From: Malacoraja senta
Taxonomy: Eukaryota
Assembly (NCBI GenBank): GCA_038087875.1
Contig: CM075989.1
Location: forward strand, 11,286,001 to 11,346,000
Reading direction: 5' to 3'
DNA length: 60,000 nucleotides
Shown: one piece after another, positions 18,301 through 57,419 of the stretch
How the letters are laid out: each line of letters begins with the position of its first letter
Position numbering within the stretch: the stretch's first letter is position 1
The notes under the pieces: generated by a model
Database searches by the model: none
Seen by the model: only the letters and a program-made list of their open reading frames with translations
Told to the model about the DNA's origin: nothing
Translations under genes and position numbers: made by a program

Positions 18301-18369
18301 AACATAGAACAGTACAGCACAAGAACAGGCCCTTTGGTCCACAGTGTCTGTGCCAAACATAATGCTAAG

Positions 18370-19642: not shown

Positions 19643-19674
19643 CCTTAGAATTATATAGCAATCTTCATTTTTAC

Positions 19675-28429: not shown

Positions 28430-28870
28430 CCATTCCGATGCCGTCTTTAAATTTCACCGATGGTACAACCGTTGTTGGACAAATAATGGGTAATGACGAG
28501 TCAGAGTACAGGAGGGAGATTGATAATCTGAGGGAATGCTGCCAATTGGACATTATTACTCCTGTTCTTCCCATGTCTGCTTGGATATCCTCCAGAATGT
28601 GGTTACTGTATAGGAAGGTGGTTTACTGTAGGTGAATTGATTTCCTCGTCCAGAGAGTGGCTATCAGTCACCGTTGATCCTAGGTAGGTGAATTGGATGA
28701 CAATTTTCTGCTGACTGGTGTTTAGGATGATTTCAGAGGGGAGTGGAGTGCCTTGACCCATGACAACAGTCATCCTAATACTGATTGCCAGTCGGTAATC
28801 ATTGCAAGCATGAGACAGTCTGTCCATCAGCCCCTGAAGTCCTTCTTCTGTTGGGGTGATGAGTGACCAA
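28430..28870. mobile_element. Fused Rex1 RT fragment (+) and RTE-clade RT fragment (-)
   Basis: FTDGTTVVGQ..NDESEYRREI on plus; EEGLQGLMDRLSHAC...FTYLGSTV...LDEEIN on minus. Confidence 0.75.
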
Positions 28871-29604
28871 TATGGTCCCGATGGTTCCTCTTCCTTCTCG
28901 GCGGCACGCCATTCCATAAGCAGTCTGACCTCCGGCACCTACCGAGGGCCCGTACTTGACACTTGTCTCGGAAGTCACTTCGGCTGTCGGGTTCATCCTT
29001 GTTCGTGGCCACTGCGGGCCAAGTCCAGTCTTGAGCGGCTTCAATTTTCTATCATTCAAGTCCACGGTGATCATCAATCTCGGCCATTTCCTGTCATCAG
29101 AAACCGACATGGTAAATGGAGACAAGAATGGCGTCTTGAAGATTCTTGATCCAAACCGTTGTCTGTCCAAACCCTCCACAGATGAAATGTCCTCTCGGAG
29201 TCCTCGACCGACCTCCGGCACCCAGCTTCAATCAATCTGGAGGAGATCCAGCGCCCTAAGAAATCCAACCAAGTTGTTCAACAGCTTCTCCAGCGCCAGG
29301 TGTGGAAGTTCGCAGAGAACGTGGAGCAAGATTGGGTCTTCAGGATCTTCAAGCATCTGACATGCAAGTCCATGATGATCGTCAATCTTGGCCATTTCCT
29401 GTCATCAGAAACTGACTTGGTAAATGGAGACAAGAATGGAGTCTTGAAGGGTCTCGATCCAAATGTCATCTGTCCATTTCCTCCACAGATGCTGCCTGAC
29501 CCGCTGAGTTCCTCCAGCAGTTTTCTGCTCCACCTTCGCTGACAGCCGAGCTCTAAAAACACATCTCTATCACGGTCTTGCACTGAGGGCACTTTACAGA
29601 GGAT

Positions 29605-32600
29605 CAGCTCCGCATTCCCAGTGACACCAGATCTTCCTCAGCAACACAGCAGGGTCAGGTGTGATGAAGCTTCTGCATGCCAGCCCTGGTCCATGGCCTT
29701 CTCTTCAGATATTGCCCTCTGGTCAATCACAGGAAACATGGCAAAGGTCGATGACTTCAGGAGGGGAAAGCCGATGATCCACAAACTTGTCTTCATTCAT
29801 GGGACAGTGGTGGAGAACGTTATGTTGCAAGTTCCTGGGTGTCCATGTCTCTGAAGATCTGTCCTGGATGTCCTCACACATCTCCTTAACCATATGGTCT
29901 CTGCTCAATCCTGTACAACTGGATCTTCAATTTCCTCATCAACAGACTACAATCTGCACAAACAGGCAACACCTCCTCCTCTATAACCAACACAGGACCA
30001 GCTCAAGGCTGTGTGCTCAGTCCCCTGCTCTATCACCAGGACTGCACAACCAGACCATTCCAATGCCTTCTTTAAATTTCACCAACGATACCATCGTTGG
30101 ACAAATGATGGGTAATGACGATCCGGAGTACAGGAGAGAGATTGATAATCTAAGGGAATGCTGCGTGCTGACATTTTGTTCTCAATGTCTTTTGGGGAAC
30201 TGAGTGCAGCATCATCAGCGGGCTGGAGTTCCCTTATAAGCACAGTTCTCACCTTCGTCTTGGCTTTCAACATTGCCACATTGAAGAGCATCCCATCACT
30301 TCTGGTTTGAAGATACATGTCTTCTGTGTCTGTTGGGAAGGCAAAGGACAGAAGGGCAGATCAGAAGATGCTGAACAACATGGGAGTTGGGACACAGACT
30401 TGTTTCACTCCACTTCTCATGGGGAAACTGTCTGATGTAGCTTCATCAATTTCCACTGTAGATGCATGTTCTCATGGAAGGAACTAGTGAGGTTTAGAAG
30501 ACGTGGTGGACATCTAATCTTCTCCAGTAGCTGGTAGAGGCCGTGTCTGCTGACAGAATCAAAAGCTTTTGTAAGATCCACAAAGATGATGAACAATGGG
30601 GTTTGCTGCTATTGACATTTTCTTGGATTTGACGCAGGAAGAAGATCATGTCCATTGTGAATCTATCTCCATGGAAACCGCATTGTGCCTCAGGTCAGCG
30701 AGTCTGTGCAGTCTTTGTAGGATCACTCTGGCAAAGGCCTTTCATGTAACACTCAGAATTCAGGTGTCCCTGTAGTTGGTGCACTCGATGTGATCCCCTT
30801 GTCCTTGTGCAGTGTGACGATGTTGGTGTTACGCGTCTGTTGAGGGACATCGCCCTCTCTCTGATGATTGTCAGTTGGTCTTTGTTGCGAGCTTGACACA
30901 GTCTGTCCATCAGCCCCTGAAGTCCTTCTTCTGTTGGGGTGATGAGTGACCAATGTGGTCCCAATGGTTCCTCTTCCTTCTTGGCGCCCCACCCCACCGC
31001 CCCCCAAACACGTCTGGTCCCTCTTTGTTTTCTCGGTGGCGCAACCTCGACCGACCTCTGGTGCCCGTCCTTGACCCTTGTTCTAGGCAGACACTTTGAC
31101 CACTGGGCTCGTCCTTGTTTGCGGCCACCGCCGGCCGAGTCCTGTCTTGACCGGCTCTGTGCCAGCGGCTGGGTCGACTCCAGCACGGCTGCCACCGCTC
31201 ACCGGGACGTTCCCTCAGCAAAACAGCAGGGTCGGGTGTGGATGAAGCTTCTGCGTGCCACCCCTGGTCCGTGGCCGTCTCTTCAGATCTTGTCCTTTGG
31301 TCAATTTCAGGAATGTGGCAGAGGTTGATGATCACTGTGGACTTGAATGGCAGAACATTGAAGATCCCAAAGGCCAATCTTACTCCATGTTATCCGTGAC
31401 TTTCCAAACCTGGCGCTGGAGAAGCTGTTGAGGAACAACTTGGTGGGACTTCTTGTGGCCCTGGATCTCCTCCAGATGGTGTGAAGGGGAAAACATGAAA
31501 CATCTGCTGACTATTGTGGTCGCCAGCTGTTTACGAGGAACTTTCTCTCCAAAGACTTGCAGGAAAATGTCACTGGGGCAGATGATGAGTCAGAGCCAGA
31601 AGAGTTTGACAAATTTCTTAAACACCGTGGATTCTCATGTGCAACAGATCGCTGCCAGTTGTACTTGGAAATGTTGACGATGAAATCCCAAATGCAGACG
31701 AGAGCGCGGGCGGGGAAGAGGTTGTAGCTCTTTCTAGTAGGCCTTTAAAAGGGCCTTTGTTGTGGGCCTTTAAAAGGGCCTTTGTTGGACGGAGTGTGAA
31801 ATTCTGGTGCGGTCCCCACCGATGTGGCTTCAAATCCGATGGTTTCACACGAACAGCACTCGGGTTCCAAACATCGATCTTCTGTTTTAATTTAGATTAG
31901 CTTAAGAAATTTGTCAAACTCGTCCAGTTCTGTCTCATCATCTGCCCCAGTGGCATTTTCCTGCAAGTCTTCGGAGGGAAAGTTCCTCGCAAAGAGCTGG
32001 CGACCACATCAGTCGGCAGATGTTACATGCTTTCTCCATCACACTGTCTGGAGGAGATCCTGGGCCACAAGAAGTCCCACCAAGATGTTCCACAACAGCT
32101 TCTCCAGCGCCAGGTGTGGAAGGTCGCGTAGAACATGGAGTAAGATTGGCCTTTGGCATCTTCAATGTTCTGTCATTCAAGTCCACTGTGATCGTCGACC
32201 TCTGTCTTGTCCCTGAGATTGACCAGAGGACAAGAATCCAGTCTTCACTGGCTCCATGCCGGCTGCCAGATCGGCTCCAGTAAGGCTGCGCGGTACTCTC
32301 CCGTGAGCGAGTCAGGTTCACCTGCTCCAGGTGTGGAAGGTTGCAGAGAACATGGAGCAAGGTTGGGTCTTTGGGATCTTCAAGGATCTGTCATTCAAGT
32401 CCACGGTGATCATCAAACTTGGCCATTTCCAGTCGTCAGAAACCGACCTGGTAAATGGAGACAAGAATGGAGTCTTGAAGGATCCCGATCCAAACGTCAT
32501 CTGTCCATTCCCTCCGCAGATGACGTGTTCTCTTGGCGGCGCGTCCTCGACCGATCTCCGGCACCCACTGACGGCCCGTCCTCGGCCAACCGCCAGCACT

Positions 32601-33004
32601 CAGACATCTGTCATGTTTGTCCCTTCAAACAATCTGGAGGATATCCAGGGCCACAAGAAATCCCACCAAGTTGTTCCTCAACAGCTTCTCCAGCTCCAGG
32701 TGTGAAAGATCGCAGAGAACGTGGAGCAAGATTGTGTCTTCAGGATCTTCAATCATCTGTCACTCCAATTCACGGTGATCATCAATCTTGGCCATTTCCT
32801 GTCATCATAATCCAACCTTGTAAATGGAGACAAGAATGGAGTCTTGAAGGGTCCCGATCCAAACATCGTCTGTCCATTCCCTTCACAGATGCTGCCTGAC
32901 CCGCTGAATTTCTCCAGCAGTTTTCTGCTCCAACTTTGCTGACAGCCGAGCTCTAAAAACACATATCCATCATGGTCTTCCACCGAGGGCAGTTTACAGA
33001 GGAT
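29605..33004 (+). repeat. Tandem segmental duplication unit A (about 3.4 kb)
   Basis: Near-identical to 35136-38158; a mosaic of Rex1/RTE fragments and orphan exon-like modules. Confidence 0.92.
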
Positions 33005-33014
33005 CAGCTCCGCA

Positions 33015-33043
33015 TTTTTTTTTTTTTTTTTTTTTTTTTTATT

Positions 33044-33076
<33 letters not shown>

Positions 33077-35135
33077 TTTTTAGAAGTACGGTAGATTACA
33101 GTAATGTACAACACGTATATATTAATACATTTTTTGTACCGCTTCGCTTTTTTAAACTTTAAGAAAGAAAAAGAAAGAAGTAAGAAAAGTGAAGAAAGTG
33201 CGCAAAGGTTGTGAAGTGCAAAAGAGTGTTGGGAAAAGAAAGCCCCTTAGAAAAGAAGTTAGAGAAGGAAGTAAAGTTAGAAAATAGACCCTAGAAAAAA
33301 AAGAGAAAGAAAGAAGGAACAATCGCTCTATTATAACTCTTATACCATACTTCATAGAGAAGGAACTACCAACCAAGTCTGTTTTTATTTTACCTCCCAT
33401 TACCAGGTCCAGATACCTTTTATTTATTTATTTGTTTTTCTAAATTACTATTGCACCTCATGCTTGTAATAGGTCCAAAAACGTAGACCACGTCTTTTGA
33501 AATTGATCTACTTTGCCTACTAGGAGGAATCTCATCTCTTCCAGATGTAATGTTTCCAACATATTTGATGTCCACATTTTTATTGTTGGTGTGGGCGCAT
33601 TTTTCCAGAATTTAAGTATAAGCTTTTTTCCCATTATTAGCCCATAATTGAGTAAATTCTTCTGATACACGTTTAATTCAGGAATACCTTCCGATATTCC
33701 AAAAATAATCCATTCTGGTTTTGGTACCAGTTTTATTTTGATTAATTTTGAAAAAATATCAAATATTTCAAACCAGAATTTTTGGATTTTTGTACAAAAA
33801 ACAAAAGAATGTGCTATGGTAGCTTCTTGACATATACATTTATCACAGATTGGTGAGACGTTAGGAAAGATTTTATTTAGTTTGGTTTTTGAATAATATA
33901 ATCTATGTAATGTTTTAAATTGGATAAGCGTATGTCGTACGTTGATCGAGCATTTATGCACCTGTAATAAATGATTATCCCAACTCTCTTTTGAAATTTT
34001 TATACCTAGATCTTGTTCCCAATCTCTTCTAATTCCATCTGTTGGGTATTTCTATATTTAAGATGATATTATATAAGTATGATATTAAATTAACTGATTC
34101 CGCCTTTGTCTTCATTGCTTCATCTAGTAAGTCGGAAGGCATATTATAATAATCTTTTGTGTGTGTTTTCAAATAGTCACAGATTTGTAGATATTTAAAA
34201 TATTGATTATTTTTCAAATTATATTTCAGTTGTAGTTGTTGGAATGATAGTAATTTTTCTAATTCATACAGATCTTCGAGCGTTTTAATTCCCATTCTTT
34301 CCCATTGTATAAATGCTTTATCTATGATTGAAGGTTTAAACGATGGGTTATTGACTATTGGTATTAAGAGAAGATAGGTTTCTTAATTTTAGATTCTGTT
34401 TTATTTGCTTCCATGTTCTAATAGTGCTATATATAATTGGATTTTTATTATAATTTTTATTATTCAAATTTATTGGAGAGAGAATAATCGCTCCTATATT
34501 ATTCGGGGAGCAATCCCCTTTTTCCATTATAATCCAGTCCACCTGCTGGGCAGAATTGTCCAGCAGGTGAATCATATTTTTAATATTTACTGCCCAGTTA
34601 TAATACATAAAGTTAGGGAGCGCTAGACCCCCCAACTCTTTTCGTTTGTTAAGGTGTGTTCTTTGTATTCTGTGGGATTTGTAATCCCATATAAAATTTG
34701 TAATGTCTGAGTCCAGTTTTTTGAAAAACTTTTTTGGGAGATATATAGGTATTGATTGAAATAGGTAAAGGATTTGTGGTAAGAAAATCATTTTTATAGC
34801 ATTTATCCTACCTATTAAGGACATCGGAAGTGTTTTCCAAAATTTAATCAGATTATTTAATTTCTTAAGTAGGGGATTATAATTAGCTTTAAACATATCA
34901 TGGTAATTTCTAGTAATCTCAATTCCTAAATATTTGAATTTTTCCATAGCTATTTTAAAAGGGAATTTCCTGAGATGTGTTGAGTCTTTTGGTTTAATCG
35001 ACATAATTTCACTTTTGTTCCAATTTATTCTATATCCTGAAAAGGATCCAAAGTCCTCAATTAAGTTTAATATATTTGGTATACTAATTTGTGGTTTTGT
35101 GATGTACAGTAGTACATCAATACAGTAGTACATCA
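33015..35135 (-). mobile_element. 5'-truncated L1-clade LINE (ORF2 RT C-terminal part and CCHC knuckle, frameshifted), poly(A) tail, TSD cagctccgcattt
   Basis: SGYRINWNKSE, FKYLG, GGLALPN, CDKC...HSFVFC; poly-T 33015-33074; TSD at 33005-33017 and 35136-35148. Confidence 0.93.
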
Positions 35136-38100
35136 CAGCTCCGCATTTCCAGTGACACCAGATCTTCCTCAGCAACACAGCTGGGTCAGCTGTGATGAAG
35201 CTTCTGCATGCCAGCCCTGGTCCATGGCCTTCTCTTCAGATATTGCCCTCTGGTCAATCACAGGAAACATGGCAAAGGTTGATGACTTCAGGAGGGGAAA
35301 GCCGATGATCCACAAACTTGTCTTCATTCATGGGACAGTGGTGGAGAACGTTATGTTGCAAGTTCCTGGGTGTCCATGTCTCTGAAGATCTGTCCTGGAT
35401 GCCCTCACACATCTCCTTAACCATATGGTCTCTGCTCAATCCTGTACAACTGGATCTTCAATTTCCTCATCAACAGACTACAATCTGCACAAACAGGCAA
35501 CACCTCCTCCTCTATAACCAACACAGGACCAGCTCAAGGCTGTGTGCTCAGTCCCCTGCTCTATCACCAGGACTGCACAGCCAGACCATTCCAATGCCTT
35601 CTTTAAATTTCACCAATGATACCATCGTTGGACAAATGATGGGTAATGACGATCCGGAGTACAGGAGAGAGATTGATAATCTAAGGGAATGCTGCGTGCT
35701 GACGTTTTGTTCTCAATGTCTTTTGGGAACTGAGTGCAGCATCATCAGCGGGCTGGAGTTCCCTTATAAGCACAGTTCTCACCTTCGTCTTGGCTTTCAA
35801 CATTGCCACATTGAAGAGCATCCCATCACTTCTGGTTTGAAGATACATGTCTTCTGTGTCTGTTGGGAAGGCAAAGGACAGAAGGGCAGATCAGAAGATG
35901 CTGAACAACATGGGAGTTGGGACACAGACTTGTTTCACTCCACTTCTCATGGGGAAACTGACTGATGTAGCTTCATCAATTTCCACTGTAGATGCATGTT
36001 CTCATGGAAGGAACTAGTGAGGTTTAGAAGACGTGGTGGACATCTAATCTTCTCCAGTAGCTGGTAGAGGCCGTGTCTGCTGACAGAATCAAAAGCTTTT
36101 GTAAGATCCACAAAGATGATGAACAATGGGGTTTGCTGCTATTGACATTTTCTTGGATTTGACGCAGGAAGAAGATCATGTTCATTGTGAATCTATCTCC
36201 ATGGAAACCGCATTGTGCCTCAGGTCAGCGAGTCTGTGCAGTCTTTGTAGGATCACTCTGGCAAAGGCCTTTCATGTAACACTCAGAATTCAGATGTCCC
36301 TGTAGTTGGTGCACTCGATGTGATCCCTTGTCCTTGTGCAGTGTGACGATGTTGGTATTACGCTTCTGTTGAGGGACATCGCCCTCTCTCTGATGATTGT
36401 CAGTTGGTCTTTGTTGCGAGCTTGACACAGTCTGTCCATCAGCCCCTGAAGTCCTTCTTCTGTTGGGGTGATGAGTGACCAATGTGGTCCCAATGGTTCC
36501 TCTTCCTTCTTGGCGCCCCACCCCACCGCCCCCCAAACACGTCTGGTCCCTCTTTGTTTTCTCGGTGGCGCAACCTCGACCGACCTCTGGTGCCCGTCCT
36601 TGACCCTTGTTCTAGGCAGACACTTTGACCACTGGGCTCGGTCCTTGTTTGCAGCCACCGCCGGCCGAGTCTGTCTTGACCGGCTCCGTGCCAGCGGCTG
36701 GGTCGACTCCAGCACGGCTGCCACCGCTCACCGGGACGTTCCCTCAGCAAAACAGCAGGGTCGGGTGTGATGAAGCTTCTGCGTGCCACCCCTGGTCCGT
36801 GGCGGTCTCTTCAGATCTTGTCCTTTGGTCAATTTCAGGAATGTGGCAGAGGTTGATGATCACTGTGGACTTGAATGGCAGAACATGAAGATCCCAAAGG
36901 CCAATCTTACTCCATGTTATCCGTGACTTTTCCAAACCTGGCGCTGGAGAAGCTGTTGAGGAACAACTTGGTGGGACTTCTTGTGGCCCTGGATCTCCTC
37001 CAGATGGTGTGAAGGGGAAAACATGAAACATCTGCTGACTATTGTGGTCGCCAGCTGTTTACGAGGAACTTTCTCTCCAAAGACTTGCAGGAAAATGTCA
37101 CTGGGGCAGATGATGAGTCAGAGCCAGAAGAGTTTGACAAATTTCTTAAACACCGTGGATTCTCATGTGCAACAGATCGCTGCCAGTTGTACTGGAAATG
37201 TTGACGATGAAATCCCAAATGCAGACGAGAGCGCGGGCGGGGAAGAGGCTAGTGGGCCTTTAAAAGGGCCTTTGTTGTGGGCCTTTAAAAGGGCCTTTGT
37301 TGGACGGAGTGTGAAATTCTGGTGCGGTCCCCACCGATGTGGCTTCAAATCCGATGGTTTCACACGAACAGCACTCGGGTTCCAAACATCGATCTTCTGT
37401 TTTAGTTTAGATTAGCTTAAGAAATTTGTCAAACTCGTCCAGTTCTGTCTCATCATCTGCCCCAGTGGCATTTTCCTGCAAGTCTTCGGAGGGAACGTTC
37501 CTCGCAAAGAGCTGGCGACCACATCAGTCGGCAGATGTTTCATGCTTTCTCCTTCACACTGTCTGGAGGAGATCCTGGGCGACAAGAAGTCCCACCAAGA
37601 TGTTCCACAACGGAGACAAGAATGGAGTCTTGAAGGATCCCGATCCAAACGTCATCTGTCCATTCCCTCCGCAGATGACGTGTTCTCTTGGCGGCGCGTC
37701 CTCGACCGATCACCGGCACCCACTGACGGCCCGTCCTCGGCCAACCGCCAGCACTCAGACATCTGTCATGTTTGTCCTTCAAACAATCTGGAGGATATCC
37801 AGGGCCACAAGAAATCCCACCAAGTTGTTCCTCAACAGCTTCTCCAGCTCCAGGAGTGAAAGATCGCAGAGAACGTGGAGCAAGATTGTGCCTTCAGGAT
37901 CTTCAATCATCTGTCACTCCAATTCACGGTGATCATCAATCTTGGCCATTTCCTGTCATCATAATCCAACCTTGTAAAAGGAGACAAGAATGGAGTCTTG
38001 AAGGGGCCCGATCCAAACATCGTCTGTCCATTCCCTTCACAGATGCTGCCTGACCCGCTGAGTTTCTCCAGCAGTTTTCTGCTCCAACTTCGCTGACAGC

Positions 38101-38158
38101 CGAGCTCTAAAAACACATATCCATCATGGTCTTCCACCGAGGGCAGTTTACAGAGGAT
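35136..38158 (+). repeat. Tandem segmental duplication unit B (about 3.0 kb); a diverged partial third unit follows to about 38720
   Basis: Colinear with unit A but lacks the about 360 bp corresponding to 32097-32456. Confidence 0.92.
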
Positions 38159-38925
38159 CAGCTCCGCATTTCCAGTGACACCAGATCTTCCTCAGCAACA
38201 CAGCAGAGTCAGCTGTGATGAAGCTTCTGCATGCCAGCCCTGTTCATGGCCGTCTCGTCAGTTATTGTCCTCTGGTCAATCACAGGAAACATTTCAGACG
38301 GTCGATGACCTCAGGAGGGAAAGCCGATAATCCACAAACTTGTCTTCATTCAGGGGACAGTGGTGGAGAACGTTATATTCCAAGTTCTTAGTTGTCCATA
38401 TCTCTGAAGATCTGTCCTGGGTCCAGCACATCAATGCAATCACACACAAAACCTATGACTATCTCTAAGCTTTCGTAACATCCACAAAGGAGATGAACAA
38501 TGGGGTTTGCTGCTCTTGACATTTTCCTTGTATTTGACGCAGGGAGATCATGTCCATTGTGGATCTACCTCCATGGAAACCGCATTGTGCCTCAGGTCAG
38601 CGTGTCCATGCAGTCTTTGCAGGATCACTCTGGCAAAGGCCTTTCCTGTAACATCCAGATGTCCCTGTAGTTGGTGCACTCTCTTCTTCCCGTGTGACGA
38701 TGTTGGTTGTTACGCGTGTGTTACTCAGAAACTGCTCAGTCCGTCACAGGTGATGATCTCTTCACCGTCAAGGGATTTACAGGAGATGCTACCTGCAAAA
38801 GGCAGCTAATATCAAAGACCCCACCCACCCTACCATTGTGAAAAGCCAACAGAAGCAGGAAACTGACCTCCATGTTTAAGAGCAGCTTCTTCCCAGTAAT
38901 TACAAGCTCTCGAACACTGGCACAA

Positions 38926-39505
38926 CTGCGACCGACCGACCTCGAGGCTCCGGAGGCAGAGCCAGGACTTACCAGCGCGGGGCTGGCCGGCTTCGGGGCC
39001 TGCGGTGTCGTTCCGGCGGTGGCGACCGAGGACACTGGTGGCGACCTGAATCCGGAGGCTCGGCCGCAGGCCCGGTGGACGACATCGTCGGGAGCTCGCA
39101 GGTCACAGGTGGGTGACCTGTTTTTCTGGGGCTCCCGCAACTACAGCTGCGACCGCTGGACTGGAGGGCGGCAGCTTCGGCCACCCCGGGCCGCGGAAGT
39201 TTGAACCGGCCCGTCGCGGACGGAGCACGGATTCAGCCGCGGGACTAACTTACCATCACCCGGCGGGGTCACAACGTCAGAAGCCTGGATCGCCTCAGCG
39301 CGGAGGGAGAACAAAGAGGGAAGAGACAGAGACTTTAAGACTTTTGCTTCCATCACAGTGAGGAAGTGCCTGGTGAACTCACTGTGGTGGATGTTAATTT
39401 GTGTTTATTGTGTGTTTTGTTATTTATTACATGTATGACTGCAGGCAACGAAATTTCGTTCAGACCGAAAGGTCTGAATGACAATAAAGGAATCTAAGTT
39501 CTAAC
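38926..39505 (+). mobile_element. GC-rich unclassified retroposon-like repeat ending in AATAAA and a short tandem tail
   Basis: Shares the cttccatcacagtg motif with 1-180 and (inverted) 55965-56010. Confidence 0.5.
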
Positions 39506-39894
39506 ATGAACACACAACGATGAGATATTATGGACTGCGTCTTTTGCTGCCCGACAGATATTTTTTACACTAGCAATTAATTATTAATTTCCTGGATTTT
39601 TATTTTATTAGTTATCTGTGTGTCATTGCACCATGCTCCCATTATTTTGTTCAGAAGCCCAAAAAACGTGACCTCCGGGTTCAGGAACAGCTTCTTCCCA
39701 GCAACCATCAGGCTCTTGAACACTGCCCAACACAAACCACATCCATGAACTGTGAAGCACCATGGACTGAGTCTTTGGTTGCATTACAGACATTTTTACA
39801 ATAATATCGTGAGTATAAATTTACTGAAATGTAAATTAATGCATTTTTCTGTTCTGCAATTACAGGCTTTGTTAATCTACAGCAAGAAATACAC

Positions 39895-40440
39895 CGCTCC
39901 CACACTCACACCCTGCCTGCACACCCCCTCCCTCCCCCTCCCCCTCCTCCCACATCCTCCCTCCCCCCACCCACTCCTCACACCCGCCCACCCCTCTCCG
40001 GCTCCACAACGCTCACTGCCCCCTCCCCTCCAGACACACCCCACCAACAGACTCCCCCTCCTCCACATACACACCCCTCCCCCACACACACCCCTCCCCT
40101 ACACACATCCCCGCCACACACACCCCTCCCCCACACCCACTCTCCCCCCTCCCCCACCCACACACCTCCTCTTACACACCCCGCCAACACACACCCCTCC
40201 CCCCACACATACCCTCCCCTACACACATCCCCACCCACACACACCCCTCCCCATACACCTCCCTCTCCACATCCTTCCTCCCCCCCGCACCCCTCCCCCA
40301 CACCCCCCTCTCCCACATCCTTCCTTCCCCCGCACCCCCTCCCCCACACACACACCCTCTCCGGCTCAACAATGCTCGCTGCACTCCCTTCCCCCCTCCC
40401 CTCTCCCCACACACACCCGCCAACACAGCAACACAAGAAC
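39895..40440. repeat. C/A-rich low-complexity tandem repeat (G-rich on minus)
   Basis: Recurring cccctccccacacacac units. Confidence 0.85.
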
Positions 40441-42095
40441 TCTGCACTTACAAACTTGAAAATTGGCACCAAACCTGGCCTCTCTGTACTATCTCAATCT
40501 ACTACTGTTATACACTTGTACCATATCCGAGATGCTTATCTGTCAAAGTGATTATGTATGGTGATACATGTATTAAAGTGTATACAAAAATGAATTTCAC
40601 TTTAGCTCAGTAAATATGACTAATATATAACCATTGTACATTTATAAGCACAGTTCTTACCTTGGTCTTGGCTTTCAGTGTTGATGAAGAGGTTCCAGTC
40701 GCTTCTAGTGTGAAGATACCCTCCTTCTGTGTCAGTCGTGAAAACAGAGGGCAGATAGGAAGATGCCGAACAGCCTGGGAGCTGGGACACAACCTTGCTT
40801 CAATAGACAATAGGTGCAGGAGTAGGCCATTCTGCCCTTCAAACCAGCCCCGCCATTCAATGTGATCATGGCTGATCATCCACAATCAGTACCCCGTTCC
40901 TGCCTTCTCCCCATATCCCCTTGACTCCGCTATCTTTAAGAGCCCTATCTAGCTCTATCTTGAAAGTATCCAGAGAACCGGCCTCCACCGCCCTCTGAGG
41001 CAGAGAATTCCACACTCACCACTCTCTGTGTGAAAAAGTGTTTCCCCATCTACGTTCTAAATGGCTTACCCCTTATTCATAAACTGTGCCCCCTGGTCTG
41101 GACTCCCCCAACATCGGGAACATGTTTCCTGCGTCTAGCGTGTCCAAACCTTAACAATCTTATATGTTTCAATAAGATCCCCTCTCACCTTTCTAAATTC
41201 TAGAGAATACAAGCCCAGCCGCTCCATTCTCTCAGCATATGACAGTCCCGCCATCTCGGAAATTAACCTTGTGAACCTACGCTGCACTCCCTCAATAGCA
41301 AGAATGTCCCTTCCTCAAATTTGGAGACCAAAGCTGCACACAATACTTCAGCTGTGATCTCATTAGGGCCCTGTACAACTGCAGAAGGACCTTTTTGCTC
41401 CTATACACAACTCCTCTTGTTATGAAGGCCAACATGCCATTCGCTTTCTTCACTGCCTGCTGTACCTGCATGCTTACTTTCATTGACTGATGAACAAGGA
41501 CCTCCAGATCCCGTTGTACTTCCCTTTTCCAACTTGACACCATTTAGATAATAATCTGCCTTCCTGTTTTTGCTACCAAAGTGGATAACCTCACATTTAT
41601 CCACATTAAACTGCATCCGCCATGCATCTGCCCACTTACCCAACCTGTCTAAGTCACCCTGCATTCTCATAGTATCCTCCTCACAGTTCACACTGCCACC
41701 CAGCTTTGTGTCATCGGCAAATTTGCTAATCCCTTCACCTAAATCATTAATATATATTGCAAATAGCTGCGGTCCCGGCACCAAGCCTTGTGGTACCTCA
41801 CTAGTCACTGCCTGCCATTCTGAAAGGGACCCGTTAATACATACTCTTAGTTTCCTGTCTGCCAACCAATGTTCTATCCATATCAGCACTCTACCCCCAA
41901 TACCATGTGCCCTAATTTTCCCCATTAATCTCCTATGTGGGGCCTTATCAAATGCTTTCTGAAAGTCCAGGTACACTACATCCACTGGCTCTCCCTTGCC
42001 CATTTTCCTAGTTACATCCTGAAAAAAATTCCAGAAGATTAGTTTAGCATGATTTCTCCTTTGTAAATCCATGCTGACTCGGACCGATCCTGTTA

Positions 42096-43630
42096 AGGGC
42101 CTGTCCCATTTGGGCGACATTTTTGGCAACAGCCTGAAAAGAGGTTGTCGCGTCGTGGTCGGGTCATGACGCGTGGTGACACATGTAGTGACTCGTGGTG
42201 TCTCCCTGTCGCCCCTGGATTTTGGAATGTTCAAAATCCAGGGGCGACATCTGGGTGCCTCATCATGTCGTGCGCCCTGTCACACGCTGATGTATGCTGT
42301 CCTGCGGGTGACACAGATGGGCTGTAAAATATTCTTCCTTCAATGCATGGATTTTAAACATTAATATATTAAAATTAATACAATAAAATCAATTTTGCAA
42401 ATGAAAAGATGGCTGAGTGGTTCAGTTTTATTTACAGATGTATTGGTCCACTTCCAGATCCACTCACCATCTCTAACTTTTCACAGGGATGGATTCAGTG
42501 AGTGTAGACTGAAATCCCCCCTCCCCTCCTGCCCCATCCCTCCTTCTCCACTACCCCCCCTACCCTTCTCCAGTCCCTCTCCCCCCTTCTTTCCCGCCCC
42601 ATCCTTGCTTCAAAATGGGTGGTGGGTATTTAGACTCAGTGGCCGGAGCAGGTGGGTGGCACTGGTACATTGACAACATTGCCTGGACCCAGTTGAAAAG
42701 CCCGCTGCCTCTGGGGGTTTGGAGAGACCATTGGAAGAGAGCTCTGCCCTCTGGGACAACTTGTTTAGTTCCCATGAGCAGGCAGAACATTGGGGGTTCG
42801 AGTCCAACCCCTGGGCCCCTGTATCACATTTAGTTCAGAGATACAGTGCCCTTCGGCCCACCGAGTCCGCACTGACCAGCGATCCCCCGCACACAATCCC
42901 ACACATGCTAGGGACAATTTATACATACCAAGCCTATCAACCTAGAGTTAGGGTTAGGGTTAGGGTTATGGCTAGGGTTTGTATAAATTGGCCCTAGCGT
43001 GTGTGGGATAGTGTGCGTGTATTCGCTGGTCGCAGGCTGGGTCCACAAATGGGGGACATCGGGGAAAGTGGGGGGGGGGGGTGGAGAATGGGAGAAGGGA
43101 GGGAGAGGGGGAGAAGGAGATGTGAGGGGAGAGTGGAGAAAGGGGAGAAGAGTGGAGTGGGGAGAAGGGAGGAAGAGGGGGAAGGGAAGAAGTGGGGGGA
43201 GAGGGGAAGGGAAAAGGATAGGGGGGTTAGTGGAGAAGGAGGGATGGGGCAGGAGGGGGGTGGATGGGAGAGGGGAGTTCAATCTACACTCACTGAATCC
43301 ATCCTGTAAAAAGTTAGAGACGGTGATTGGATCTGGAAGTGGACCAATACATCTGTAAATACAACTGAATGACTCAGACATCTTTTCATTTGCACAATTG
43401 ATTTTATTGTATTAATTTTAATATATTAATGTTTAAAATCCATGCATTGAAGGAAGAATATTTTACAGCCCATCTGTGGTCCCTAACCCTAACCCTGATC
43501 CTAACCCTAACTGGGCGTCACCCACAGGACAGCATACGTCAGCGTGTATGTCGTAGAACTTGACGGTTTTACGGGCATCAGTCACTGACGCTCGCAGTCA
43601 CCAGAAAAATCGCAAAGTGGGACAGGCCCT
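42096..43630. mobile_element. Non-autonomous PIF/Harbinger-like element with long internal inverted repeats
   Basis: TIRs agggcctgtccca... and ...tgggacaggccct; 3-bp flanks tta/gta; internal inverted arms 42283-42520 versus 43270-43547. Confidence 0.78.
42948..42978 (+). repeat. Interstitial telomeric repeat (TTAGGG)3 plus variants; a second (CCCTAA)n tract at 43481-43511
   Basis: Read directly from sequence. Confidence 0.85.
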
Positions 43631-43891
43631 GTACTACTATCCAAATGTGCCGCTATTTCATCTTTTATAATTGACTCCAGCATCTTCCCCACCACCAATG
43701 TCAGGCTAACTGGTCTATAATTCCGTTTTCTCCCTCCCGTCTTTCTTAAAAAGTGGGATAACATTAGCTACCCACCTATCCACAGGAACTGATCCTGAAT
43801 CTATAGAACATTGGAAAATTATCACCAATGTGTCCATAATTTCTAGAGCCACTTCCATAAGTGTACCCTGGGATGCAGACCATCAGGCCCT

Positions 43892-43946
43892 GGGGGGGGG
43901 GTGGGGTGGGGGGGGGGGGGGGGGTGGGGGGGGGGGGTGGGGGGGG

Positions 43947-43980
<34 letters not shown>
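43892..43980 (+). repeat. About 90-nt poly-G tract
   Basis: Read directly from sequence. Confidence 0.9.
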
Positions 43981-46409
43981 CTGATCCTCTGGCCACTAGA
44001 ACATCAGGAAGATTGTTTGTGTCTTCCTTAGTGAAGACGGATCCAAAGTACCTGTTCAACTCATCTACCATTTCCTTGTTCTCCGTAATAAATTCACCCA
44101 TTTCAATCTTCAAGGGTCCAACTTTGGTCTTAACTATCTTTTGCCTCTTCACATACCTAAAGAAGCTTTTACTATCCTCCTTTATATTCTTGGCTAGCTT
44201 ACCTTCGTACCTCATCTTTTCTCCCCGTATTGCCTTTTTAGTTATCTGTTGCTCTTTGAACGTTAGCCAATCCTCTGGCTTCCCACTCATCTTTGCTATG
44301 TTATACTTCTTCTCTTTTATTTTTATACTGTCCCTGACTTCCCTTGTCAGCCACTGTCGCCCCTTAATCCCTTTGGAATCTTTCTTCCTATTTGGAATGA
44401 ACTGCTCCTGCACCTTCTGTATTATTCCCAGAAATACCTGCCATTGTTGTTCCACTGTCATCCCTGCTAGGGTATCTTTCCAGTCAACTTTGGCCAGCTC
44501 CTCCCTCATGGCTCCATAGTCCCCTTTGTTCAATTGTAATACTGACACCTCCGATTTACCCTTCTCCCTCTCAAATTGTAGATTAAAACCTATCATATTA
44601 TGGTCACTACCTCCTAATGGCTCTTTTACCTTGAGTTCCCTTATCAAATCCAGTTCATTACGCAACACTAAATTCGGAATTGCCTTCTCCCTGGTACGTG
44701 CCAGCACAAGCTGCTATAAGAATCCATCATGGAGGCACTCCACAAACTCCCTTTCTTGGGGTCCAGTACCAACCTGGTTTTTCCAGTCTACCTGCATGTT
44801 GAAATCACCCATAACAACCGCAGTATTACCTTTACGACATGCCAATTTTAACTCTTGATTCAATTTGCACCCACAGTATATACAGGCTACTATTTGGGGG
44901 CCAGTAGATGTCCAATTAGGGATTTTTACCCTTACAATTCCTGTTCTATCCATACTGACTCTACATCTCATGATTCTATGTCACCCCTTGCAAGGGACTG
45001 AATTTCATTCCTCACCAACAGAGCTACCCCACCCCCTCTGCCCACCTGCCTGTCTTTTTGATAGGTAATATACCCTTGAATATTCAGTTCCCAGCCCTGG
45101 TCCTCTTGCAGCCATGTCTCTGTAGTTCCCATAACATCATACTTGCCAATTTCTAACTGAGCCTCAAGCTCGTCCACTTTATTTCTTATATTTTGCATAT
45201 TAATATAAACATTTTAACTTTGGTATTCACCCCCCCCTCTCACACCAGTCACTATTGGCCCTGACCTTACTCTCTTATCCCTTCTCAAACTTTCCTTCCC
45301 ATTAATTCGGGAGTTTTTTGTAACTTTTCCGGTACTTGCTTTCCCTTTAACTCTATCTTTATACTCCCAATTCACTCCACTACTCATGGGGAAATTGTCC
45401 TAAGTAGCGCCATCAAATTGCACTGTAGATGCATGTGGACAGACTGGATGAGGTTTAGAAGACATGGTGGATATCCAATCGTCTCCAATACCTGGTAGAG
45501 CCACAGCTGCGGACAGAATCGAAAGCTTTTGCAAAAGGCCAATCTTTCTCTAAGTTTGAAGCAAACTTCCATATGTGGAGCAGCTGTTGAGGAACAACTT
45601 CCTGAGGCTCCGGAACAGATCAGCAAAGCTCAATCTCATCGGTCAGAAGAAAAGCAGCTGGAGGAACTCAGCAGGTCAGGCAACATATGTGAAGGGAATG
45701 GACAGATGATGTTTTGGATCACGGCCCTTTGAAGCTCCATTCTAGTCTCCATTCACCAGGTCAGTTAACAACGACGCAGATCGCAGAGGTTGATGATCAC
45801 CATGGACTGGAATAACACATGGTTGAAGATCCCAAAGGCCAATCTTGCTCCACGTTCTACGTGACCGTCCACACCTGGCGCTGGAGAAGCTGTTGAGGAA
45901 CAAGTTTGTGGGATTTCCTGTGGCCCCGGTTCTCCTCCAGATGGTGTGAAGGGGAAAACGTGAAACATCTGCCGACTGAACATCGGCAGCTGTTTCCGAG
46001 GAACTTTCCCAGCAAAGACTTGCAGAAAATTGCCACTGGGGCAGATGATGAGCCAGAGCCAGATGAGTTTGACAAATTTCTTAAAGGCCATGGATTCTCA
46101 CGTGCAACAGATCGCTGCCAGTTGTACTGGGAAATGTTGACGATGAAATACCAAATACAGATGAGAGCGCGGGCGGGGTGGCAAGTGGGGCCTTTGTTGG
46201 ACGGAGTGAGAAATTCCAGTGCGGTCCCCACCGATGTGGCTTCAAATCCGATGGTTTTACACGAACGGCACTCGAGTTCCTGACGTTCATTTTATCTGTT
46301 TTAGTTTGGTTTAGATTAATTTAATTTAGTTTACTTTAGTTTGGTATATATTGACGTGTACTGAGACTTTTGTTGCGTGCTATCCAATCCCTCTTGGGGT
46401 TGCATGGCG

Positions 46410-47980
46410 TTTAAGACATTTGTCAAACACGTCTGGCTCTGACTCATCATCTGCCCCAGTGGCATTTTTCTGCAAGTCTTTGGAGGGAAAGTACCTCGCA
46501 AACAGCTGACGACCACATCAGTCGGTAGATGTTTCATGTTTTCCCCTTCACACCATCTGGAGGAGATCCAGGGCGACAAGAAATCCCACCAAGTTGTTCC
46601 TCAACAGCTTCTCCAGCGCCAGGTGTGGAAGGTCACAGAGAACTTGGAGCAAGATTGGCCTTTGGGATCTTCAACGACGTGTCATTCCAGCCCATGTAGG
46701 TATGTTACAAAACTTACCTTCAGTCGCGCTGTAATTCTGCCACTGGCCGTGTGCGCGATTTTCGCGCCTTTAAGGGGGGGGGCGGGGTTAAAACGCGGGT
46801 TTCTCCTCCCTTGTCCTGAATTATATTTCGTTGGAGTACAAGCGTTGGCTGAAGAATCGTTCCTAGTGGCGTTTTGTGAATTTTTTATTTTTATTAAATC
46901 GTCAATGTCAGCGCTGGAGTAATTTTAAAATCAGCTCCTGAAGCGTCAACGCCGATAACAGGGACGGATTTCACACACGGGACAGGTAAACGAAAGTGGT
47001 TTCTTTAAATGTATAAAAGTGCTTCTTAAGAAGCCTTTAATTCACATTTTTTCATGCGAAACGGTGATTTTATTCCCCGAATTAACGGCAGTATTTTTCA
47101 TGCCAATACGGGGTTAAATTCACCGCAAATGAACGTTCCAAAAGATCGCGTTCCAGAAATCCTCACTCACAAGATGATTTAAATGCCCATTAATTTACAG
47201 GTATTAAACATTCAATTCCTTCCATTTGGCCTGTAAATTCATGAAAATGAGATTTAAAAATTATGTTATATTGTGAATTCTTGTGTGAATGTTATTTGGA
47301 CACTTAGGCTATTTAAAAATGTTAATCTATTCTTAAGAAATTGATAGATGTTTAGATCTAGTAATTGAATTTTGTAATTAGCTACAATTAGGTAACTAAC
47401 TAATTATATGCTTTACTTTCATGTCTTCTAAGTAAGATTGTTTCATATTTGTTTCAGAATGCTTCAATCTATAATAACTGAAAATTTCTTTGTTATCTTA
47501 ATTTTTAAGAAAGTTATGGGCTTTTAACTGTCCTCGATCACAGCTTTTGTGTTAAGTCAATGGAAAAGCAATAGGGAACAAGATGCTAATTTCCGAGTAT
47601 GAAAATGGCCATAACTTCTTTAATACTGAAGATATGAAAGTGAATTAGGTGTCAAATTAAACTTCTTTTTATGCTTTATCTGATGGGATAAATTGCAACT
47701 TTATTTTTAAAATCTCAAAATTTTGTAACATTGCTAGCCCATGGTGATCATCAACATCTGCTAACTGCTCTCGTCGGAAACTGACCTGTTAAATGGAGAC
47801 AAGAATGGAGTCTTGAAGGGTCACGATCCAAGACGTCGCCTGTCCATTCCCTCCACAGATGCTGCCTGGCCCGCTGAGTTCCTCCAGTTCTTTTTCTTCT
47901 TACCGAGGAGATTGAACCTCACCGATCTCCGACAAGATCTCGGTCTGGAAGTACATCTCGGTCGCGGTCTCCCACGCCAT
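46410..47980 (-). pseudogene. Orphan spliced reading frame: MAWETATEMYFQTEILSEIGEVQSP (47904-47980), 118-nt intron, exon from 47785 with TAG at 47761-47763 and a hAT insertion
   Basis: acgATGG Kozak, CG|gtaaga donor, ttgtctccatttaacag acceptor; paralogous copies have TGG where this copy has TAG. Confidence 0.45.
46697..47736. mobile_element. Non-autonomous hAT-like DNA transposon with 16-bp TIRs and 7-bp TSD gcccatg
   Basis: TAGGTATGTTACAAAA ... TTTTGTAACATTGCTA (2 mismatches); gcccatg at 46690-46696 and 47737-47743. Confidence 0.85.
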
Positions 47981-48454
47981 CGTCTTCAAGGCCGGTCGCA
48001 GAGCGGTCCAGGGGCGCTGGATCTACTCGGAGCCAACTTGACCTGCAGATGTTTGTGCGCAGCTGGACTTGCCGGGACTTAGCACCGGTGAGTGTGTGTA
48101 ACCGCGAACACCATCAATGGAGCAGAATGACACACGAAAGAGAGACTCCCCGCCTTCACACCCCTTCATACTCACTCCTCGCTCCTCCAGGGGGCTCGAC
48201 CCGTCGGCCAGCGGGTGCGGATGGGAAGGAAGGAATGACCCCTGAGAGGATATTTTATTAAATTGCGGGAGAGGGGCGATGTCTTTGGCCTTTTTCCTTG
48301 GTCGTGTCCGGAACGCAGACCCGGTCCGGCCGGTGAAGCCTCGCTGACCAGTGGGATGACCAGAGCGATGGATTGAGTCTTGAAGGATCCCTGGCGGGGG
48401 CGCGCCGCTGTCCACTCGCGGTGGGGGCGCGCGTCGAGGTTCTTCTCCGGCCAC

Positions 48455-48600
48455 TCACCCTCGGACACTGCGGACGCTGCCTGGACAGCGCCGTCTTTTA
48501 TAGACACCGCCATGTCCCGCCCCCCTCGCTGACCATTGGACCTCGCTCAGGCCACGGCGTTGAGCCATGGGGCGGACAGTCCATCCGATTGGCGGAGACC
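48455..48600 (-). promoter_or_regulatory. Pol II promoter-like cluster: CCAAT (48588-48592), GC box (48569-48575), CCAAT (48535-48539), GC box (48516-48525), TATAAAAG (48495-48502), Inr-like GCAGT near 48469, donor GG|gtgagt at 48458
   Basis: Motifs in canonical order and spacing on the minus strand within a CpG-rich island (about 47900-48730). Confidence 0.6.
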
Positions 48601-48729
48601 GCTGTCCGTCTGTGCGAAACCGGCCAAACTTCAGCGCGCGAAAGAAAGCTCGTGCGAAGCGATTGTCCGTTTGCTCCGGCCACGAGCCCGCCTGACCCGC
48701 ACCCCCTCCCCCACTGGCGCCAAGCCGGA

Positions 48730-49105
48730 CACTGAGGGAGATCAGGAACACTTGTGGAAGATTTTGAGGGACCATTGGTCACTGAGGGAATGAAGGACAC
48801 TGAGGGTCCGTTGGTCACTGAGGGACTGCCAGACTGAGGGTCATTGAGGGAGAACCGGACACTGACCATTGTTGATGGACTGAGGGACCATGGAGGGGAT
48901 GAGGGACCATTGAGGGTTTGAGGGACCATTGACTGAAGGGGATGAGCGACATTGAGGGGACGAGGGACCGCTGCTCATTGAGTGTCTGGTGGATGCTGAG
49001 GGAATGAGGACACTGGGAATGAGGCACGCTGAGGCGATGAGGGGCACCGAGGAACTGCGGGACAGACGATGCTGAGGGATTTAGGGACATTGAGGGGATG
49101 AGGGG
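48730..49105. repeat. Degenerate minisatellite of (c/t)tgaggga modules
   Basis: More than 15 tgagg(g)a cores at roughly 10-20 nt spacing. Confidence 0.75.
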
Positions 49106-50560: not shown

Positions 50561-50858
50561 TCTCTCCTATGGTATTGATATCGACATTGGTTTATCATTG
50601 TCAAGTGCACAATGAAGACTTTGTTTGTGTACCACGCAGTCAAATCATACCATACATGAGTACAATCAAGTCATTACACAGTACATCAGTTAGAGCAAAG
50701 AGAAAAATTCCAGAATGCAGAATATAGTGTTACAGCATTACACTGTTGTTTTTACAAACTAAAAGGTGTCAGTACACACAATAAACACACATGGCATGGA
50801 AAATGAAATAAAAATATTTTACTTTTACACTGTGCTGGCGTGTACCATCGCTGGCATG

Positions 50859-55656: not shown

Positions 55657-57419
55657 ATATACTATTAAAACTCTGTGTGTGTGTGGATGTGTGTGTGTGT
55701 GTGTGTGTTTGTGGGTGTCAGATTTGGCCTTTGATTCCTTGCTCCGCCAAAACCACATGCAAAAACTCCACGATTTTTTACATTTCGCTAGACATTACAC
55801 TTTTACATACCCTAACACACTCCTTATTAGATTTAGACATTTTTATGATTTTGATTTTATTTCTTGTCATTTGAACCTCAAGAGGCTCAAACGAAACTCC
55901 GTTTCCACAGCCATACAAACAAAACAATTCCTACAAGACACACAAATAATTCAATTTACAGAAAAACATCCATCACAGTGAATCTCCTCCTCACTGTGAT
56001 GGAAGGCAAAGTCTTTTCTCTCCCCTGCACCATTTTTCTCCCGATGTTGAAGCCCCAGGCGGGCAATGTTAAGTCCCACGGCCGTTGAGGCCACGCCGGG
56101 CAGTATACAGTTTCGCTCCGGGCCCAAAGTCACAAAGTTGGAGCCCCGGCAGGCGCTGGAATGTCGGGCGATTTACGGCCCCGCTCCGGGTCGTTCAAAC
56201 CCCGCGACTCGAGCTGGAGAAGTTGCGTTGCGGGAGCTCCGGAAAGCGGTCTCTCACCCGGACCCGCGAGCTCCCGATGTCCCAGTCCACGGGTCTGCAG
56301 CTGCAGCTGGAGGTCCGGAGTGAGCAGCAACGAGCCACCACCGCTCCCCGCGCTCCGAGGCCGGCCAGCCCCACGATGGTAAGTCCGGAGCTCCACAGGC
56401 TCCGCGACTGGAGCCTCCAGGTCGTCCCGGTCGGAGGCAGGGAAAAGGTCGGGTCTCCCGTGCAGGGAATCGATTTTTTTAAAGTCCCCCCCCCCGCCCC
56501 CCACATATACACAATTAAAACAGTACAAAAAAACCACAAACAACTACATTTAACTAGACAAAAATAAAAAAAGACAGACGGGCTGTAGGGGCCGCTGCAG
56601 TAATCCGCGCCGCCGCACATCATTTATTTTAAAAATGTACACATTTTAAAAATAAAATCCATCCCCCCCCCCCCCCCCCCCCCACTCACTCGTTTTGTCT
56701 CCTCCTCCTGGCCAGCCACCATAACGGCTGCTGCCGCCCGGCTCTGCTCCAAAAACACCACAATTTTTTTCCTTTCGCTGGCGATTTTCGCAGCTGCCGC
56801 CCGGCTCTCCTCCACTACCCCCCGCCCCCCCACCCCGGGCCGGCTCTCTCACGCTGGCTCAAGCGCACAGCTCTCCTCCAAAAAGCCGACATTTTTTTTT
56901 TCCCCTGGCGATTTTTGCTGCTGCTGCCCGGCTCTCCTCCACTACCCCCCCCCCCCCGGGCCGGCTCTCTCACGCTGGTTCATGCCAAACATCGGCTCTT
57001 CCCCCTCTGCTTTTCATCGTCCTCTGTCCGAGGACGCTGAAAAGCAGCGGCGGAACAACCCATCTTTGACTTCAGCAAGCGTCACAGAGCCGGCGCGTCA
57101 ACGGCCGCGGCCTGTCAGCCTGCAGCCCCATTGAGGGCGTACGCAGCGTCTCGACAGCCGTACGCAGCATCTCGACGTCGTACGCAGCGTCTTGACGGCA
57201 TACGCCGCCTACGCCGTCAACACGCTGCGTACGACGTCGAGACACTGCGTTCAACGTCAAGATGCTGCATACGCCGTCAAGACACTGCGTACAACATCAA
57301 GACGCTGCGTACAACGTCAAGACGCTGCGTACGGCCGTCCAGAAGCACGTTCGGGAACCAGACCCCGGGGTCTGAAGCACGTTCGGGGTCCAGACCCAAC
57401 GGGTCTGCTCTTGGTCTAG
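55654..57419 (+). mobile_element. Non-autonomous Helitron-like element (about 1.8 kb) with internal cargo
   Basis: 5' a|TCTATATACTATTAAAA followed by (GT)n; 3' hairpin CAGACCC-aac-GGGTCTG (57391-57407), 8 nt, CTAG|t; no TSD. Confidence 0.72.

Follow-up and report, generated by a model that had tools for sequence, protein, structure and literature searches.

Organization of the locus

The DNA analysed is a stretch of 60 kb (the window), in which an initial annotation had described a repeated exon-like module between the genes EIF3J and STRC. The first neighbour was confirmed by matches to Pfam PF08597 above the cut-off in two of the four exons tested, while the second, presumably STRC, gave no significant family or PDB match. 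A profile built from the module copies and run over the whole 60 kb returned 13 matches, each with E<1e-11, which represent 12 copies, as the matches at 46394-46696 and 47719-47798 are two halves of a single copy parted by an insertion. The matches are confined to 29002-47798, where they occur in both orientations, with none in the rest of the window, and pairwise likeness among the copies ranges from 63 to 100%. The module was found at all 11 positions first reported, on the strands given, and two copies could be added, at 37411-37613 (minus strand) and 45530-45614 (plus strand); the latter is a short and more diverged fragment.

At the left end of the cluster, two minus-strand copies (29060 and 29370, named by approximate position) occupy 29002..29530; the former is truncated, the latter carries +1 and -3 indels, and a putative acceptor AG is lost in both. 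A first tandem unit (29605..33016) contains L2- and RTE-type fragments, copies 32400 and 32770, and a palindrome, P31, with arms at 31288-31621 (+) and 31902-32235 (-). The second unit (35136..38171), which holds copies 36870, 37500 and 37920, is a copy of the first minus 360 nt: alignment of 29605-33017 with 35136-38171 gave 3005 matches, 29 mismatches and nine 1-nt gaps (~99% alike). These three of the 12 copies stem from one recent tandem duplication; the remaining nine are 63-89% alike. A 5'-truncated L1-type LINE lies between the units (33017..35135, minus strand), with a poly(A) tail and a 12-nt duplication; its Pfam matches, RVT_1 and zf-RVT, are both under cut-off. The two units could also be haplotypes set in tandem by the assembly, and 29 mismatches in ~3000 nt with nine 1-nt gaps would fit allelic differences or consensus errors. 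However, the L1 and its 12-nt duplication sit exactly at the junction of the units, and the other nine copies are too diverged to be alleles, so that a partial artefact of this kind is highly improbable.

At the right end, an inverted promoterless copy (45645..46319, plus strand) retains the intron-2 piece described below, has the longest 3' extension of all copies, and carries a -1 frameshift and a TGA; it forms the left arm and the spacer of a second palindrome, P45, whose right arm is the module half at 46403..46696.

Predicted gene model of the promoter-linked copy

The head of the unit, overlooked in the initial annotation, is found on the minus strand between 48.6 and 47.8 kb. A predicted Pol II-type promoter (48496..48592) comprises CCAAT boxes at 48592 and 48539, a GC box at 48523 and TATAAAA at 48502, in a CpG-rich stretch (CpG o/e 0.69-0.89). 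This arrangement together with the downstream donor occurred in none of 3000 shuffles, the pattern being a post hoc one picked after inspection. TATA spacing places the start of a predicted short non-coding exon 1 (48458..48475), which ends at a GTGAGT donor and would be spliced over a predicted intron 1 (48042..48457) with an AATAAA inside, at 48259. In the window, promoter and intron 1 each occur once, and the ORFs that overlap them have no Pfam match. In predicted exon 2 (47904..48041) the first ATG, at 47980, has a strong Kozak context and is followed by 77 coding nucleotides and a phase-2 donor, GTAAGA, at 47903; the splice phase of this exon enters the module frame proposed initially. 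Several other copies are preceded by short, degraded homologues of exon 2 (shuffle p 0.002-0.04 at six of eight places tested). Predicted intron 2 (47786..47903, 118 nt) is for the most part an ~85-nt fragment of a highly abundant repeat, which also occurs among Penelope-type fragments at 18-20 kb, and which sits at the identical position in seven copies. Copies 29060 and 29370 each have an intron-2 piece.

The module itself would be exon 3, split into a 5' half (47737..47785) with a TAG in the reading frame and a 3' half (46403..46696) with an in-frame TGA. The halves are separated by a non-coding DNA-transposon-like insertion of 1039 nt (46697..47735) with imperfect ~16-nt terminal inverted repeats and an 8-nt target duplication. 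Target duplications of 8 nt are characteristic of hAT elements, and the insertion is hAT-like by this textbook rule, with no database match. The one promoter-bearing copy carries two stops and ~1 kb of inserted DNA. The promoter, the two upstream exons and the in-register ATG support, at the sequence level, a reading of the module as the 3'-terminal exon of a gene-like unit. In the frame set by exon 2 the majority sequence is stop-free for ~68 codons, which is of modest probability, as 2-6% of shuffles (86, 227 and 123 of 4000) are equally long open in a given frame. The ancestor would have encoded a peptide of ~70-95 aa, with the length depending on the ancestral state of a 1-nt indel.

An acceptor-like tract had been noted ahead of many copies; it precedes seven of the 12, with the exact string quoted found only once, at 32464, and the AG is kept in five of these seven, being gone at 29060 and 29370. 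The presence of the intron-2 repeat and of exon-2 scraps in promoterless copies indicates that the unit was copied as DNA and not from spliced mRNA. In this respect the proposed birth-and-death amplification of a small orphan gene is borne out, as far as DNA-level duplication with the intron is concerned; its other component, a living or selected protein family at this locus, is not.

Coding capacity and selection

The peptide first quoted for the module is a composite, open throughout in only one of 11 aligned rows (32180), and a 1-nt insertion soon after the KIP/KIL motif puts copies 29370, 32400, 32770 and 37920 out of the quoted frame. The open copy described as 140 aa long is a real ORF, of 150 codons from stop to stop (31938-32390), whose first ~45 codons are the adjoining copy in another frame plus spacer. 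The stops attributed to single changes were found as claimed: TGG>TAG in copy 47750, and CGA>TGA in 31340, 36870, 45800 and 46680, where four other copies have CGA and one CAA.

A codon test was run without the recent duplicates (36870, 37500, 37920) and without non-homologous tails. In the module frame it counted 37 synonymous and 94 non-synonymous changes, with an expected synonymous share of 0.26 and an omega of 0.91 (p=0.34). All six frames are neutral, the lowest p among 36 frame-by-segment tests being 0.13. A frame shifted by one base, considered as the true coding frame for its apparent synonymous changes and shared stop, was rejected (omega 0.66, p=0.15, not significant). Indels within the module ORF, counted by eye, include one multiple of three among six. 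Neither the synonymous excess nor the frame-preserving indel bias that the initial annotation had named as part of its check is present, and nothing in the copies supports a protein family that is still alive or was under selection until recently.

Several copies could still be members of a functional orphan family evolving by birth and death, as the ATG exon is in register and copy 32180 is open across the module. Yet the sole promoter belongs to a copy interrupted by an insertion and two stops, copy 32180 has neither exon 2 nor promoter, an intact AG acceptor and an open frame are combined in none of the 11 rows, omega is close to 1 and indels do not preserve frame. Of the features of a functional multicopy protein-coding family, a promoter and spliceable exons, as judged from sequence, are found in one copy only. 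This reading, in its strong form, is largely refuted at this locus and has very little probability. What is found instead are the marks of an unprocessed duplicated pseudogene cluster: introns kept, disabling lesions and neutral divergence.

Similarity searches

The initial annotation recognised no known family in the module, and this held in protein word searches, a full HMMER search, Pfam and PDB. Word searches gave no match for the 150-aa ORF (16 candidates, among proteins of 82-263 aa only), for the exon-2 ORF against longer proteins (seven candidates) or for 45741-46700 read in several frames (144 candidates, among proteins of 176-560 aa only). A full phmmer search with a multi-frame read of 31251-32858, exon 2 being left out, returned as its sole match an Ig-repeat protein (E 5.7e-4); each repeat scores 27 bits against the spacer read in antisense, and the match is attributed to chance. 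Pfam, NCBIfam and PDB gave no match on the module, the ESM Atlas no usable one (top score 0.79), and exon 2 had no protein match in the searches made; a suspected likeness of exon 2 to ancestral KRAB domains found no support in Pfam or PDB. No protein relative emerged from these searches, which speaks against the presence in public sets of intact, annotated coding members.

At the nucleotide level, two metagenome scans for DNA patterns and a phage blastn search gave no matches, and seven viral contigs sharing a 17-mer did not extend past 27 nt, as expected by chance. Rfam had no match at gathering score in the 60 kb, its three sub-threshold matches all lying within the transposon-like insertion, and a miR-430-type seed is absent from the module. 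A SECIS-like or pre-miRNA reading of a small internal hairpin was discarded, with covariation at 0 of 29 pairs. Literature searches brought up no paper on the family, a weak negative since the family has no name. Retrozymes are reported in one chondrichthyan in the excerpted text of a bioRxiv paper, in whose supplements the intron-2 repeat may figure.

Occurrence in related organisms

Of ten sequencing runs listed, with no entry on record as RNA, four were examined over 45500-48760, among them X5 and X8, from two related organisms. Contigs of X5 and X8 cover 30 of 30 bins, promoter included. Over promoter and intron 1 their summed contig depth, which is not equal to copy number, is about 9-43 times single-contig depth. 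For the module this factor is 10-200, and for the embedded repeats 10^4-10^5, again as summed depth and not copy number; the hAT-like piece exceeds 2x10^4 in X5 and the intron-2 repeat 6x10^4 in both runs, with raw depths of up to 3 million and ~2 million, respectively. Position 48135 is covered by one X5 contig at a depth of 719. Judged by depth, promoter-bearing copies number in the tens in the two related organisms, and some of them differ very little from one another. X1 and X3, which we guess to be RNA, gave low-depth contigs on intron 1, spacer and arms, with none on exon 1 and most of exon 2, and no predicted splice joint is among the 15 joints shown of 548, which weighs neither for nor against expression. 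The family extends beyond this interval, as the promoter occurs at tens of copies in the relatives versus one in the window.

The module's depth of 10-200 times and the lack of copies outside 29-48 kb in the window speak against a high-copy transposon. A different matter, although an unlikely one in our view, is a non-autonomous mobile element of low copy number (LTR-like, Penelope-mobilised or other) that has its own promoter and whose local copies are nested and rearranged insertions. It would account for the tens of copies in relatives, for direct and inverted copies each with a repeat piece common to the Penelope-type region, and for an AATAAA 240 nt after the TATA box, a loosely LTR-like layout; according to excerpts of PMC3846280, Penelope can move intron-containing genes between direct and inverted pLTRs. 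On the other hand, the repeat piece lies within intron 2 instead of framing the unit. The exons have no Pfam match and no similarity to the LINE or Penelope-type ORFs of the window, nor to a reverse transcriptase or endonuclease, and no module copy occurs elsewhere in the 60 kb. Neither framing pLTRs with target duplications nor any other terminal repeat or target duplication was found around the unit, whose upstream end is undefined.

Interpretation

The stretch probably represents a local cluster, now dead, of a small three-exon family of Pol II gene-like units that is restricted to its lineage. One copy retains the promoter, the predicted short non-coding exon and the predicted ATG exon with its phase into the module frame; the others are promoterless pieces with remnants of exon 2 along with the intron-2 repeat. 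A single tail-to-tail inversion, now present three times, was followed by the recent 3.4-kb tandem duplication, L1 and DNA-transposon-like insertions are present, and the copies have diverged neutrally. Ectopic recombination and fold-back repair among repeats could have produced the rearrangements, and patchy conversion may have acted between palindrome arms. Since the relatives hold tens of promoter-bearing copies, better preserved members may be expected elsewhere in the genome.

The palindromes also allow a non-coding RNA locus, in which the promoter reads through P45 to yield an ~290-bp hairpin diced into siRNAs against the family. The two arms of P45 show ~90% complementarity, including uninterrupted stretches of 36, 31, 29 and 22 nt; the palindrome occurs three times, the arms of one palindrome cluster together (support 97), and X5 and X8 contigs connect the spacer with the opposite arm's tail, a weak sign as side lengths are not given. 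Any inverted duplication would nevertheless fold into such a stem, the three palindromes display no strand bias to G:U pairs (p 0.23; 0.06, in the opposite direction; 1.0), the small internal hairpin lacks covariation, and an ATTAAA at 46325 (minus strand) could terminate the transcript ahead of the second arm; we regard this reading as improbable. An extended form, with an ampliconic TATA-driven small-gene family restricted to cartilaginous fish and alive elsewhere, and with the locus as its suppressor, whose promoter-bearing copy would have given up coding and been converted to siRNA production by palindrome read-through as a vertebrate counterpart of Nmy/Dox, is speculative and very unlikely.

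Returning to the dead cluster of a gene-like family, the locus by itself is most likely ordinary debris. Its value lies in pointing to an unnamed mid-copy unit with textbook promoter and exons, which two or more related organisms have in common and which is missing from the searched protein sets. By analogy with ampliconic germ-line and early-embryo genes, a homogenised multicopy unit with a TATA/CCAAT promoter could be expressed in a short strong burst. That intact expressed members exist somewhere is a real prospect, if one we lean against; they would form a family of genes for small proteins, specific to the lineage, whose gene model is already defined.

Comparison with known systems

In Drosophila, excerpts of PMC10317233 describe a Nmy hairpin RNA directed against the Dox family, which resembles this locus in having a promoter followed by an inverted copy of a young multicopy gene, potentially able to form a long dsRNA stem. 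Here, in contrast, the host is a vertebrate, and no strand-specific G:U bias and no known target function are seen.

Host genes of Adineta vaga mobilised by Penelope, in the excerpted account of PMC3846280, likewise keep their introns, occur as direct and inverted repeats and are associated with a repeat piece from Penelope-type DNA; there, pLTRs frame the gene and target duplications flank it, whereas here the piece is inside an intron.

The ampliconic palindrome families of the primate X and Y, as far as excerpts of PMC8327919, PMC8600007 and PMC13616518 describe them, differ in scale, with arms of tens of kb that are >97% alike against ~300 bp and ~89% here, and the present unit has no sign of sex linkage and no known protein family. 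They nonetheless share with it a multicopy young unit, direct and inverted duplicates made at the DNA level, signs of arm-to-arm conversion and decayed members.

Copies of the module

The exon-like module is the predicted last exon (exon 3) of a gene-like unit, and its copies, judging from their sequence, are probably a cluster of unprocessed pseudogenes that stem from a mid-copy gene-like family restricted to the lineage. It was found at each position, and on the strand, where the initial annotation had placed it. A profile of the module gives 13 matches with E<1e-11, all within 29002-47798, which correspond to 12 copies because an insertion splits one of them. Three of the 12 copies go back to a tandem duplication of recent date, whose two units match at 3005 positions and mismatch at 29; between these units lies a fragment of L1 type that carries a 12-nt duplication. 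The remaining nine copies are 63-89% alike, and partial misassembly has very little probability. Three extra truncated module heads are joined to L2-type fragments at ~29710, ~35240 and ~38260 (profile, E 0.003-0.013).

As first proposed, the module matches no known family: word searches, Pfam, NCBIfam, PDB, ESM Atlas and Rfam gave no relative, nor did a full HMMER search of 1.84 billion representatives. Protein queries covered the frame of the originally quoted peptide (the reader's frame), the other two sense frames in part and the antisense frames; for exon 2 the coverage was limited to word searches, Pfam, NCBIfam and PDB. Among the flanking genes, EIF3J lies on the minus strand from ~26 kb downward, with PF08597 above the Pfam cut-off in two of four exons tested and a weak match at 25.9 kb; the exon at 59.4-59.7 kb, which gave no significant match with the tools, presumably corresponds to the end of STRC.

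Reading frame and selection

The quoted peptide proved to be a mixture of frames, four copies carrying a 1-nt insertion, and only the copy near 32180 is open throughout. The acceptor said to precede many copies occurs as an exact string only once; the AG is intact in 5 of 7 acceptor-like tracts, and no row combines it with an open frame. Constraint on the reader's frame was not borne out: in nine non-redundant rows, with minor alleles scored against the majority codon in a count that is not tree-based, 37 changes are synonymous and 94 non-synonymous (expected synonymous share 0.26), for an omega of 0.91 (p=0.34). Taken singly, the three ORF segments of this frame have omega values of 0.96, 1.29 and 0.96. 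Selection was not significant in any frame or segment (lowest p 0.13 among 36 tests), and strong constraint would have been visible despite the form of the count. Of the six ORF indels, counted by eye, only one has a length divisible by three; some 1-nt gaps between ~99% twins may be consensus errors.

A predicted gene model

The initial annotation captured the repeated exon and missed the head of the unit, which lies upstream of the copy near 47750 on the minus strand. There, CCAAT boxes (48592, 48539), a GC box (48523), TATAAAA (48502) and a GTGAGT donor (48457) are followed by a predicted exon 2 after an acceptor (from 48041), a first ATG in strong Kozak context (47980), a phase-2 donor (47903) and a 118-nt intron ending in an acceptor at 47786. 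The TATA-CCAAT-GC-donor pattern, defined post hoc, has a single occurrence in the window; when the CpG-rich stretch was shuffled 3000 times it never appeared, and a TATA box by itself appeared in 19 of the 3000. The window likewise has a single copy of the promoter, of exon 1 and of most of intron 1. The predicted splice leads into the reader's frame, in which the copies' majority sequence runs for ~68 codons with no stop; 2-6% of shuffles stay open that long in a given frame. Together these observations speak with moderate weight for a coding ancestor. The promoter-bearing copy carries disabling lesions: a TAG, a TGA and an insertion of 1039 nt that has terminal inverted repeats and an 8-nt target duplication. 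The locus as such is probably dead, and a functional family here is very improbable.

A minisatellite of 18-19-nt units (48765-48970) adjoins the promoter upstream, with a minus-strand CCAAT in one unit (48778). Antisense to exon 2, at 47878-48261 on the plus strand, runs a 127-codon ORF with an Arg/Ser-rich stretch and only a sub-threshold Pfam match (E 2.2); a strong plus-strand donor lies near 48090.

Origin of the copies

A ~85-nt piece of a very abundant repeat, inside predicted intron 2, is kept at the same place in seven copies, and exon-2 likeness exceeds shuffles in 6 of 8 upstream stretches tested (p 0.002-0.04); therefore the copies arose by duplication at the DNA level. A tail-to-tail palindrome occurs three times (45.8-46.7, 31.3-32.2 and 36.8-37.6 kb), with arms of ~290-330 nt, 88-90% complementary, and a spacer of ~280-310 nt; the first two share a common centre, with a deletion in the latter. 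Such arms could suggest a hairpin-RNA locus, a reading that is quite doubtful; of the features of such loci (PMC10317233), only the trivial one is present. Arms cluster by palindrome (support 97), the signal coming chiefly from the first 50 columns, with 3 and 4 differences within and 10 between; the grouping fits patchy arm-to-arm conversion, with independent origins as the alternative. A 25-nt unit with a near-palindromic core is duplicated at 31740-31787 and 37252-37302, in two of the palindrome spacers and not in the third.

The unit in related organisms

Part of 47720-48700 is present in ten sequencing runs (six studies, six organisms), half or more in none. Contigs of four of the ten were compared over 45500-48760, and two runs, X5 and X8, cover 30 of 30 bins. 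The ratio of summed to single-contig depth, which is not a copy number and gives orders of magnitude only, is ~9-43 in X5/X8 over the promoter, exon 1 and intron 1, 11-207 over the arms and 24-102 over the spacer; it reaches 2-6x10^4 in X5 over the 1039-nt insertion, and 6-13x10^4 over the intron-2 repeat. A low-copy mobile element, to which such lower ratios might also belong, is unlikely. X5 has contigs of single-copy depth over exon 2 with ~8-12% divergence, and a contig of depth 719 over 48135, which suggests a homogenised group plus older single paralogues. At several sites (e.g. 48073, 48293-48295) the whole X5 depth carries a non-window allele.

Other repeats in the window

An uninterrupted 785-codon LINE ORF at 50812-53169 on the plus strand (Pfam RVT_1, E 1.6e-34; ALKBH8_N; endonuclease-like N-terminus) is, by its sequence, a young L2/Rex-type element. 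At 42312-43478, flanked by two CR1-like RT fragments, lies an inverted-repeat element that has G-rich and C-rich tracts and whose arms reach ~300 nt and are 89-95% complementary; short telomere-type TTAGGG runs occur in or near it (42943-42979, near 43490). Several fragments in both orientations at 18300-20340, which by motif we take to resemble a Penelope-type GIY-YIG endonuclease, each adjoin the abundant ~85-nt hairpin repeat, presumably similar to a hammerhead ribozyme and with no match in Rfam. Two copies of a ~560-nt element, rich in CpG and bearing a LINE-like tail, lie in opposite orientation (38928-39487, 55860-56450), and a CpG-rich tandem repeat of ~10 20-nt units spans 57138-57339. 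An 89-nt G run within a CR1-like ORF (43892-43980) and a long low-complexity C/A-rich tract (39920-40360) are possibly low-quality sequence.

Comparison with known systems

The locus provides a precise, testable predicted gene model for an unnamed family. The unit does not qualify as a Penelope-framed gene (PMC3846280). The cluster would work like ampliconic gene clusters with palindromes (PMC8327919, PMC8600007).
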